A stretch of 47,248 nt of DNA, from positions 1 to 47,248 of the forward strand of contig JAHQWL010000034.1 of assembly GCA_029856155.1 (NCBI GenBank), given 5' to 3'. A program made the translations under genes and the position numbers. The stretch is from Promethearchaeia archaeon (GTDB lineage: Archaea; Asgardarchaeota; Lokiarchaeia; Sigyniarchaeales; SOKP01). Below are positions 3,738 through 35,739 of this stretch, one piece after another; position 1 is the first letter of the stretch; each line of letters opens with the position of its first letter. The notes beneath the pieces were generated by a model. It was given only the letters and a program-made list of their open reading frames with translations, was not told the origin of the DNA and ran no database searches.

Positions 3738-3867
3738 CTGAACCTTGTGGTTCCTCTTTCAACACCACACACTCGTGCTATTGAGAGTGGCGGGCTGAAC
3801 AGGTCGCCCGAAAGCTCCCTGCGTACACCCCCACCTCACTAACCCCGTCTTTTACGGGTGCACTCGT

Positions 3868-4106
3868 CTCGCATACTCAGTTCGCGTCACCGCGCCCTGA
3901 TCTCGTTACAAAGCATCCCATACATTCAAATTATAATGCTTCTCGCTTCATGCTTACGTCCACGCTCATGCTTCCGCTTTCGCTTCCACGCGCGCGCAAA
4001 CACTCGCATTTACACTCCGATTGGCTTCCGGCTTTCACAGGAGAACCTTACCAATCACACCAACTTAAATACATAACACACCTCGCAACACTCACTATAC
4101 GAGATT
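3868..4106 (-). other. LSU expansion segment ES39 (helix 98 insertion, about 240 nt)
   Basis: Insertion between CCCGAAAAUAGUCAGCC and GACGAGUGCACCCGUAAAAGACGGGG; closing helix AUCUCGU(4099-4105)/ACGAGAU(3900-3906); GAAGC-like short repeats. Confidence 0.85.
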
Positions 4107-4284
4107 GGCTGACTATTTTCGGGTTTGGCTTCGTGCTTAGATGCTTTCAGCACTTATCCATTGGCGCGTGGCTGCTCGGCACTACCTTGTCAGATAACCG
4201 ATACACTAGAGGCGCCGGCAAAATGTTCCTCTCGTACTGATTTTCCCTTACCCTCAGTCAACCCACAAACCCAGTAGATAGAAT

Positions 4285-4327
<43 letters not shown>

Positions 4328-4359
4328 TTAATGGGCGTACAGCCCCACCCTTGGAGGTT

Positions 4360-4391
4360 ATGCGCCTGTGCTCCTTTGCGGAAACACATAT
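4360..4391 (-). other. About 32-nt insertion in the helix-91 loop of 23S rRNA; candidate BHB micro-intron
   Basis: 39 nt lie between GGAGG and CCUCC where 8 are canonical; GCGC-ACA...hairpin...GCGC-AUA arrangement. Confidence 0.65.
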
Positions 4392-6307
4392 GTGCGCCTC
4401 CAGGATAGGAAGAGCCGACATCGAGGAAGCAAGCCACGAGGTCGATAGGGACTCTTACTCGTGACAACTCTGTTACCCCCGGGGTAATTTTTCTATCACC
4501 TCAACCATCCACACGAGAAATGTTGAGGATCGCTAGACCAGGCGTTAGCCTCAGGATTCCTTGGTGATCAGAATCCAGTCAGACCAGCTTTTGCTCTTAA
4601 ACTCTTCAGCGGATTCCTGACCCGCTTGAGCTGATCATTGGTTACTCTAGATATTGTTTCTAGAGTGAGCCGCCCCAGCCAAACTGCCCACCTGCGGGTG
4701 TCCGACGCGGTATGGGCGCCGTTAGCGATTTCAAAGGGGAAAGCCGGTGTTCCAATTGTGCTCCGCCGTAACCGAGATCACGGCATCGACGCTCCCGACT
4801 ACACTCTGTATCCAATTCAAAACCGCAGCAACAAGCTGCAGTAAAACTCCACGGGGTCTTCTCGTCCCACTGGGTTTCTCCGGACCGTTCGCCGGAGTGT
4901 AATTTCAATCGTCAGAAGGCTGGGACAATGGGGAGAACGTTGGACCATTCATGCACGTCTGAACTTACCAGACAAGGCATTTGGCTACCTTAAGAGAGTT
5001 ATAGTTACTCCCGGCGTTTAGCAGGACTTACTCGGGTTGTAACCCGGATTTATCAGACTGCCACTGGCCAGGTTTCAGCCACTGTAAACAAGCTTTCGCT
5101 CTATCAGTGACCTATGTTTTTATTAAACAGTCGTCCCCCCCTAGTTATTGCAACTTGTGAGCCCCTGCACACTGCCGAAGCTGCGTGTAGAAGTTCGCAA
5201 GCAAGCCTTATCCCAAAGTTACGGCTCTATTTTGTCGATTTCCCTAGCCTCCTTTACACGAATACGCCTTAGGCTACTCACCTAGGGGCACCTGTGTCGG
5301 TTCTGGGTACGATCACGGCATTTCTTACTTTTGCTTTTTTAGTAGGTCCTGGGATTGGCGGAACCTTCCACAATTGGATGGCTATTCATGCTTTAAGCTG
5401 GGTCTAAGTATTACACTATTCACCAGCCTTATGCATTTAAATAGGGAAATATTCGACAGCCCTATTCCACCTACCCTGAACCGTCGGCACAAAGTCATGC
5501 GTTACCGCTATTTGTAGTGCCGTGGTACAGGAATATAAACCTGTTTCCCTTTCGCGTATACCAGTTAAGGGTACGCTTAGGATCGACTAACTCTTCGCTG
5601 ACGACGCATTGCAAAGAAACCCTTGCCCTTTCGGCGGATGGGATTCTAACCCATCTATGCTTTTACTATTACCAGGATTTTCACTACGGGCAGATCCACA
5701 GGAACTCACGCCCCTGCTTCTGCTCTACCCGCACGCTCCCCTACCAGATCATGGGGTTCTTCCGCCCATGCTCTTGGGTCTCGGTGGCAGATTTGAGCCC
5801 CGTCCATTTTCGGGGCTATATTTCTCGGCAAATGAGTTGTTACACACTCGTTAGGGAATGGCTACTTCTATACCTATCCTTTTGCTGTTTTAGAAATATA
5901 ACGCCCTTTAGTGTAACACTTAACCTGCACTTAGGGACCTTAACCCAAGTCTAGGTTGTTCCCTTCTCGGCGATGGACTTTACGCCCACCAACCCGTTTC
6001 CCAGAGTCTACGGTGCCAGCAGATTCGGAGTTTAAGAGCGGGGAGAGGAATTTCTTCCCCGTACCACGCAATTAGTGCTCTACCCCACTGGCTCCCTCGT
6101 CTGAGACTTGGCTGACACCAACTTCGGGGAGAACCAGCTATCACCGATCTAGATTAGCCTTTTGCTCCTATTCCCAGTTCATCCAAGTGAATTGCACGTC
6201 AACACTGGTGCAGACCTCCATCGCCCTTTCGAGCGACTTCATCTTGACCAGGAATAGATCGACCGGCTTCGGGTATTATAGCAGAGACTTTTGGCCCTTT
6301 AAGACCA

Positions 6308-6412
6308 TTCTTCTGGCTTAATTCCTTAGAAGGATTCACTAAACGTTTTCAGAATGGCAGAACCACTCTTAAACGAGTAGGTCTTCCTAATGTGATAATT
6401 AAGTTGCAAGAA
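6308..6412 (-). other. LSU expansion segment ES9 (about 105 nt)
   Basis: Insertion after GGGAAACC closed by UUCUUGCAACUUAAUU / AAUUAAGCCAGAAGAA, before GGUCUUAAAGGGCC. Confidence 0.7.
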
Positions 6413-7142
6413 TATTGGTTTCCCTATGCCTACGCGCCGTAAGACGCTTAAGCTTGCCACTACTATAAACTCCCTGGCCAATGATTCCAGACTGATGATG
6501 CGACCCTAGTCCTCTGTATTTTGATATTCTGTCACCAGAACTCATTCATGCAGAATCTGTCCTTTCAGGCTGCATCCTTAATAAACTATTTGGTTTCAAG
6601 CACTTTTCAACGCCCTTCCGGGTTACTTTTCATCTTTCGCTCACGCTACTATTTCGCTATCGGTCTTGGGACATATTTAGATTTACCAGCGTGTATCTGG
6701 CACGTTCATACGAGAAAACCATCCCGCATTACTCGGGGACTCTCGCAGCAACCTTCTAGATTATGATTACGCGGCTGTCACGCTCTATGGCTCAACATTC
6801 AAGAGGTATTCATCTTCTCTAGGGAGGTCGTACAAGGCCCACACACCACATTTCCCATAGGTTTCCCTAGGGATTCGGTTTGATCTAATCCGCTTTCGCT
6901 CGCCGTTACTCACGGAATCACTATTGTTTTCTTTTCCTCCTGGTACTAAAATGTTTTACTTCCCAGGGTTCCCCTTCCCATGAGGGAATCTTGCGGATTA
7001 TTAGGCCGCAAGCGGATGTCCTATTCGAGAATCTCGGGGTCAACGTCTTCATGCGACTAACCCGAGCTTATCGCAGCTTGTCACGCTCTTCATCGGTGCC
7101 CAAGCCAAGATATCCACCAAATAGTGGAGGCGTATTGGCGTC

Positions 7143-16555: not shown

Positions 16556-16666
16556 AGCGGGGTGGGCTAGCCTGGTTTATGCCGCAGGGCTCATAAGTCG
16601 CAGATATTATTCCCATCTCATCGAGAAACCCTGAGATCGTTCGTTCAAATCGAACCCCCGCTACCA
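16556..16666 (+). tRNA. Initiator tRNA-Met (CAT) with a 32-nt intron at 37/38 (16596-16627); CCA encoded
   Basis: A1-U72 acceptor AGCGGGG/CCCCGCU; CAGGG-CU-CAU-A...A-CCCUG with three G-C pairs; T-arm GUUCG-UUCAAAU-CGAAC; relaxed BHB. Confidence 0.93.
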
Positions 16667-35576: not shown

Positions 35577-35739
35577 TGCAGGGAGTGGGATTCGAACCCA
35601 CGAAGAGCTATCTCACCGGATATCTCATTAGTTATTATGTTAATCAACGGATAATATAATAATCAGATCTTGAGTCCGGTTATTGAGGATTATTTTCCAA
35701 AAAAAGTCCGGCACCGTTGACCAACTTGGTTATCCCTGC
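35577..35739 (-). tRNA. tRNA-Leu (CAA) with two introns: 32/33 (35674-35705, 32 nt) and 37/38 (35622-35668, 47 nt)
   Basis: GCAGGGA/UCCCUGC-A acceptor; CCGGA-CU-CAA-GA-UCCGG after splicing; long variable arm; GUGGG-UUCGAAU-CCCAC; BHBs CCGG-ACU/CCGG-ACU and CUCA-AGA/UGAG-AUA. Confidence 0.92.

Follow-up and report, generated by a model that had tools for sequence, protein, structure and literature searches.

A predicted 30-nt BHB intron in helix 91 of a Lokiarchaeia 23S rRNA gene

Introduction

Short (<50 nt), hairpin-forming BHB introns are known from the 16S rRNA genes of Thermoproteales and Desulfurococcales (Jay and Inskeep, 2015, PMC4496867), and two short introns have been described in the 23S rRNA of Staphylothermus marinus (Kjems and Garrett, 1991, as cited in PMC3608112). 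Non-canonical tRNA introns with relaxed BHB motifs are cut by an (alpha-beta)2 EndA with a crenarchaeal-specific loop, and the loop lysine responsible for cleaving relaxed motifs is also conserved in Asgard (PMC5829648), whose tRNAs are rich in non-canonical introns (PMC11291895). A literature search retrieved no paper naming an intron in helix 91 or in an Asgard 23S rRNA; key older intron literature lay outside this search, so that a prior description is possible.

We analyzed a 47,248-nt stretch of DNA (the window) from a genome of a Lokiarchaeia family, in which an initial annotation had pointed to a 32-nt insertion shaped like a BHB micro-intron in the helix-91 loop of the 23S rRNA. Judged from this sequence and those of its relatives, the insert is very probably an ORF-less archaeal BHB intron of 30 nt, cut by the splicing endonuclease and with its exons joined by RtcB. 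It would most likely represent a known type of element with an ordinary mechanism.

The insert and its host gene

The sequence quoted in the initial annotation maps to minus-strand positions 4401-4353, within the LSU rRNA gene (Table 1). E. coli numbering was set by hand on C2520-G2523 of rrlB (the automatic alignment mis-gapped the helix-91 loop), which places 4401 at G2523, 4395-4392 at 2529-2532 and 4390 at 2534. The extra sequence in the loop is real: within the loop, the window has 34 nt at a point where the Rfam archaeal LSU model expects 3, and homologous hairpins were found in relatives, in records named Promethearchaeota (Lokiarchaeia) such as Loki_b32. An Rfam search returned no match besides the LSU rRNA, and at 30 nt the insert is far too short for the catalytic core of a group I or II intron, which takes hundreds of nt. 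Helix 91 had been assigned to the peptidyl transferase region; it extends from the peptidyl transferase centre in the direction of the GTPase centre (PMC2952862), and its loop faces away from the former, towards the sarcin-ricin loop, where A2531 touches A2662 and uL6 (PMC4889946).

An assembly error had been named as a finding that would undo the intron reading, and an assembly or sequencing artefact has next to no probability. The genome is a MAG, with a private extra G at 4366 that a 98%-identical relative (G096) lacks; however, homologous, covarying inserts are present in 23 other independent assemblies. Hairpins that are related to one another but differ in sequence occur in all 10 members of the window's genus for which this region is assembled, which excludes such an error for the insert itself.

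The 23S gene stands alone, with no 16S, 5S or tRNA gene found beside it, inside a long processing stem that has a canonical BHB of its own (AAGC:GCUU, 3-nt bulges). Given this 3-4-3 motif in the pre-23S stem, the splicing endonuclease is expected to act on the 23S transcript too. At the 3' end of the gene, the ES39 region is expanded by more than 200 nt beyond the Rfam model and is about 60-70 nt longer than in most members of the genus.

Table 1. Features of the 23S rRNA gene, the helix-91 insert and other intron-related loci in the window.
Feature	Position	Strand	Remarks
Archaeal 23S rRNA host gene	3761..7141	-	Rfam RF02540, 2534 bits; sole copy in assembly
Pre-23S processing stem BHB	7168-7162 and 3737-3731	-
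ES39-region expansion	about 4100-3880	-
Helix-91 outer stem, 5' strand, GGAGG (E. coli 2523-2527), exon	4397..4401	-
BHB central helix, 5' strand, exon GCAC (2529-2532, including A2531)	4392..4395	-	Invariant except for one C>U in 23 introns
Bulge 1, AUA	4389..4391	-	Inner hairpin starts directly after in 23/23 introns
Predicted 5' cut	4390/4389	-	Follows position 2534 when counting from the 5' side
Predicted 30-nt intron	4360..4389	-	Excision would give the exact intron-less allele of relatives
Inner hairpin of intron	4366..4388	-	Extra G at 4366 here (U·G pair and 1-nt bulge)
BHB central helix, 3' strand, GCGC (family consensus GYGY)	4362..4365	-	A·C mismatch opposite A2531 here
Bulge 2, AUA (family consensus ANA)	4359..4361	-	Middle base A/C/G/U, both flanking A's invariant
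Predicted 3' cut	4360/4359	-
A opposite C4396 (C·A replacing the usual U·G) and outer stem 3' strand CCUCC, exon	4353..4358	-
Window equivalents of 11 other 23S intron sites	5293, 5127, 5000, 4991, 4848, 4618, 4492, 4477, 4473, 4446, 4293		E. coli, about 1617, 1776, 1917, 1927, 2070, 2308, 2433, 2446, 2450, 2477, 2599
tRNA-Met(CAU), iMet-like	16556-16666	+	32-nt intron at 37/38
tRNA-Leu(CAA)	35577-35739	-	Two introns, one at 32/33

Pairing register and predicted cut sites

In the family alignment, all inserts end in GYGY-ANA, followed by the invariant exon A and the stem. The exon reads GC-GC-AC, so the GYGY can pair with GCGC or, two bases on, with GCAC. We prefer the GCAC:GYGY register because the inner hairpin begins exactly 3 nt after GCAC, as it does in all 23 introns compared, with its first pair formed in every one. 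Runs of at least 4 contiguous inner-helix pairs were found in 20 of the 23 introns at this 3-nt offset versus at most 1 at any other. Across the first four pairs of the hairpin, 87 of 92 cells were paired, with 5-7 pair types per column, many of them compensatory; shuffles gave a mean of 46 paired cells (maximum 61) and slid registers 24-39, figures to which no probability is attached since the introns are related. Taken alone, the 49-nt unit folds modestly better than shuffles (z of -2.7); the strong signal is the comparative one.

This register yields a 3-4-3 BHB, in which the central helix lies between two 3-nt bulges, one on each strand, and excision of 4389-4360, after the second base of each bulge, leaves the empty allele of the family letter for letter, with its 9-nt loop. 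One genus has an A>C loop variant both in members with the intron and in members without it, and the predicted cleavage preserves this variant. Together, the conserved geometry and the exact empty allele lend good support to the BHB micro-intron shape that was first proposed. The central helix is fully paired (4 bp) in 7 of 24 introns; the other 17, including that of the window genome, have three of four pairs and an internal A·C. The predicted motif in the window genome is consequently a relaxed BHB. Two further weak points of this register are the C·A that precedes the 5-bp outer stem and, in the window genome, the extra G next to the central helix. A further register, CGCA:NGCG, was rejected, the base opposite the A being U in only 6 of 23 introns.

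The initial annotation had instead paired GCGC with GCGC, by likeness to the intron of tRNA-Leu, removing 32 nt (4391-4360) and leaving a 7-nt loop. We consider this version very unlikely. It does form a perfect 4-bp helix, and in the window genome alone the extra G leaves room for a 3-nt first bulge with a closing U·G; in the relatives, however, both bulges measure 5 nt, a 7-nt loop is absent from all 27 short alleles, and the two further bases that would be removed are conserved like exon. The 7-nt product had been set against the canonical 8 nt, although the proper reference is the 9-nt loop of the family's own intron-less allele, which gives an intron of 30 nt and is restored by placing the central helix 2 nt downstream. 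The 3' cut, the same in both registers, is retained while the 5' cut moves to 4390/4389. As for the tRNA-Leu intron, its CCGG-ACU repeat is real, but its register does not carry over to helix 91.

Predicted splicing and the fate of the insert

Two splicing-endonuclease subunits are encoded in the genome, one of which retains the catalytic Tyr/His/Lys and aligns best with the EndA of Aeropyrum pernix, including the specificity loop with a lysine equivalent to K44; RtcB is encoded as well. We infer the cutting, the ligation and the exact cut positions as follows. In the precursor, the GCGC of the intron would pair with the GCAC of the exon between the two 3-nt bulges, flanked by the inner hairpin and the helix-91 stem. 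An (alpha-beta)2 endonuclease would cut after the second base of each bulge, and RtcB would ligate the exons. The product would be the normal loop of the family (a C·A pair closing 7 nt), with A2531 freed for its contact with the sarcin-ricin loop. An intervening sequence excised without re-ligation, giving a fragmented 23S as with RNase III in some bacteria, would also fit a short hairpin, but is extremely unlikely in view of the conserved 3-4-3 geometry, the position in the conserved core and the presence of RtcB.

The slipped register, GCGC:GYGY, bears on whether the insert leaves the rRNA at all. It pairs fully in all 23 introns scored, and its predicted energy differs from that of the GCAC register by 0.03 kcal/mol on average (in the window genome, -16.1 versus -15.9). 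With its two 5-nt bulges it would escape the endonuclease, and the insert could then be kept in all or some mature rRNA as an expansion hairpin. Large expansion segments do occur elsewhere in Lokiarchaeia, but they avoid functional centres, and helix 91 is not among the Asgard expansion sites listed in the same study (PMC7594248). We regard retention as quite unlikely given the patchy presence of the insert, its precise empty allele and the 650-750-nt endonuclease-encoding inserts at the same site in other archaea. Moreover, pairing would sequester A2531, the contact of A2662 and uL6 (PMC4889946), and seven family members have GUGY, which makes the spliceable register the more favorable one (by about 4 kcal/mol across the six that were scored). 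We suggest that removal is favored, since a retained insert pairing with 2529-2532 would block the A2531 contact in the only gene copy assembled.

There is a small chance that splicing is incomplete or regulated, the 3' strand slipping between a register with 3-nt bulges and the A·C, which can be cleaved, and one with 5-nt bulges and a perfect helix, which cannot. The equal predicted stability of the two registers points this way, as does the base favoring the uncleavable form, which most family members keep. If so, some ribosomes would bear a 30-nt hairpin at the loop that contacts the sarcin-ricin loop, and this hairpin would be a new site of expansion or a checkpoint in assembly. On the preferred reading of a spliced intron, the element has no evident host benefit and is probably a near-neutral passenger.

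Distribution in the Lokiarchaeia family

Helix 91 was assembled in 40 of 135 family genomes, on which the following counts rest: the insert was present in 24 (28-58 nt) and absent from 16. The intron-less allele, which the initial annotation had proposed to seek by aligning helix 91 across Asgard, was obtained from these 16 genomes and from 11 metagenome contigs. In the genomes, the empty allele is a 9-nt loop, CGCAC(A/C)UAA, one base over the usual 8. The metagenome contigs, searched with a pattern that permitted 6-12 nt, all had 9-nt loops (one with a C>U variant). No near-identical spliced twin of an intron-bearing genome was found among the 11 (best identity 97.1%), and we therefore counted them as intron-less alleles and not as spliced RNA. 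In other Asgard, all 31 matching genomes had the usual 8-nt loop and no insert. The 9-nt loop with C·A for U·G (4396-4390 and 4359-4358) is family-wide, whether the intron is present or absent, and is one base longer than in E. coli and the 31 other Asgard genomes.

We built a tree of the flanking 23S sequence with the insert removed, omitting rows shorter than 800 nt. Intron presence required 6 changes, at least 4 of them forced by well-supported branches. A single origin without loss was rejected, the intron-bearing rows not forming one clade (AU test, p of 7e-8, with L191 and L166 also omitted). Gains and losses of the intron are indistinguishable on this tree. An endonuclease-bearing long form at helix 91 was sought in the family and not found, the longest insert being 58 nt; the 30-nt intron of the window has no ORF and does not qualify as a homing-endonuclease intron.

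The same site in other archaea

Searching with only the 3' junction gave 92 stretches, and both junctions were resolved in 79 of them, which include a few duplicates and some doubtful labels. These 79 records from other archaea carry a 22-755-nt insert starting 2 nt after GCAG, and its excision restores the canonical 8-nt loop. The central 4-bp pairing was partly built into the search pattern and is not independent evidence; the boundaries and the restored loop were not built in. The hosts are mainly Woesearchaeota, Aenigmatarchaeota and other Nanoarchaeota, plus Desulfurococcales and Sulfolobales, and three further Thermoprotei with helix-91 inserts came from a separate search. By its sequence signature, the helix-91 intron site has users in several archaeal phyla, in DPANN and Thermoproteota as well as in this Asgard family. 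Labels that clash with the 23S sequence (Odinarchaeota, Freyarchaeota, Methanosarcinales and Desulfobacterales, in L111, L217, L092, L210 and L257) are probably due to misbinning or mislabelling; L217, an insert-bearing contig labelled Freyarchaeota, was probably misbinned, since its 23S resembles that of Aenigmatarchaeota.

Four of the Desulfurococcales inserts (646-725 nt) contain open frames of 201-219 residues with a LAGLIDADG motif, and the one frame that was scanned matched PF14528 (E-value of 2.6e-18). These frames, in L212, L247 (672-1307), L263 and L275, are candidate homing endonucleases targeting helix 91. The family's intron may have arisen as a shrunken homing-endonuclease intron or by co-conversion.

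Other introns in the family and the window

Relatives (L148-L197) carry BHB-shaped inserts at 11 other 23S sites (Table 1), mostly of 29-36 nt; those at 2433 measure 92-94 nt and those at 2599 120-209 nt. In each of the 36 inserts at these sites, the best of the registers lying no more than 3 nt from the aligned junction gives a full 4-bp central helix. Where introns occupy both 2433 and 2446, as in two genomes, the micro-exon between them is only about 13 nt long. At 1927, L191 carries a 1,499-nt BHB intron in a Lokiarchaeia-type 23S, with a 452-residue open frame that has a LAGLIDADG-like motif; the introns of relatives there measure 29-31 nt, so that long and short forms coexist at one site.

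Two tRNA genes of the window also contain introns. That of tRNA-Met(CAU) has a central-helix A·C mismatch in terminal position, which makes it an imperfect control for the helix-91 introns, where the A·C is internal. One of those in tRNA-Leu(CAA) is bounded by the CCGGACU repeat; this gene was miscalled as tRNA-Lys or missed by ARAGORN.

Comparison with known systems

The predicted intron extends rRNA BHB introns to Lokiarchaeia and to the helix-91 site. Introns of 30 nt would inflate estimates of Asgard 23S length, pass for expansion segments and possibly break primers and assemblies. With or without the intron, the family's mature ribosome has a small but real peculiarity in its 9-nt loop beside the sarcin-ricin loop. 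Uniform mini-introns that were repeatedly gained or lost at 12 sites, with no coding endonuclease, offer a dataset on the spread of ORF-less archaeal introns.

Like ES9 and ES39 of Asgard, the helix-91 insert is extra helical RNA in a Lokiarchaeia 23S, but those segments occupy variable positions on the surface and stay in the rRNA (Penev et al., 2020, PMC7594248), whereas the helix-91 loop touches the sarcin-ricin loop, a functional centre (PMC4889946), which is not the location of an expansion segment. With non-canonical tRNA introns it shares the predicted enzyme type, the 3-4-3 geometry, a size of about 30 nt and a 7-nt loop product; it differs in that its host RNA is an rRNA. As with the introns of S. 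marinus and the I-DmoI intron of Desulfurococcus mobilis, it would be a BHB intron in a 23S gene. The S. marinus introns are reportedly hairpins of about 55 nt in domains IV and V, spliced in vivo; the helix-91 intron is shorter and its splicing is a prediction from sequence, and the S. marinus site in domain V may coincide with it.

The closest likeness is to the short 16S introns of Thermoproteales and Desulfurococcales, which are also ORF-less hairpins of similar size with a BHB at the junction, lie in the conserved rRNA core and have long endonuclease-coding and short forms at one locus; the helix-91 intron differs from them by its 23S location, its Asgard host and the A·C mismatch in its central helix. 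In the features that a sequence can reveal, it is a short BHB intron of the kind found in Thermoproteales rRNA and would work like one, with a relaxed central helix.
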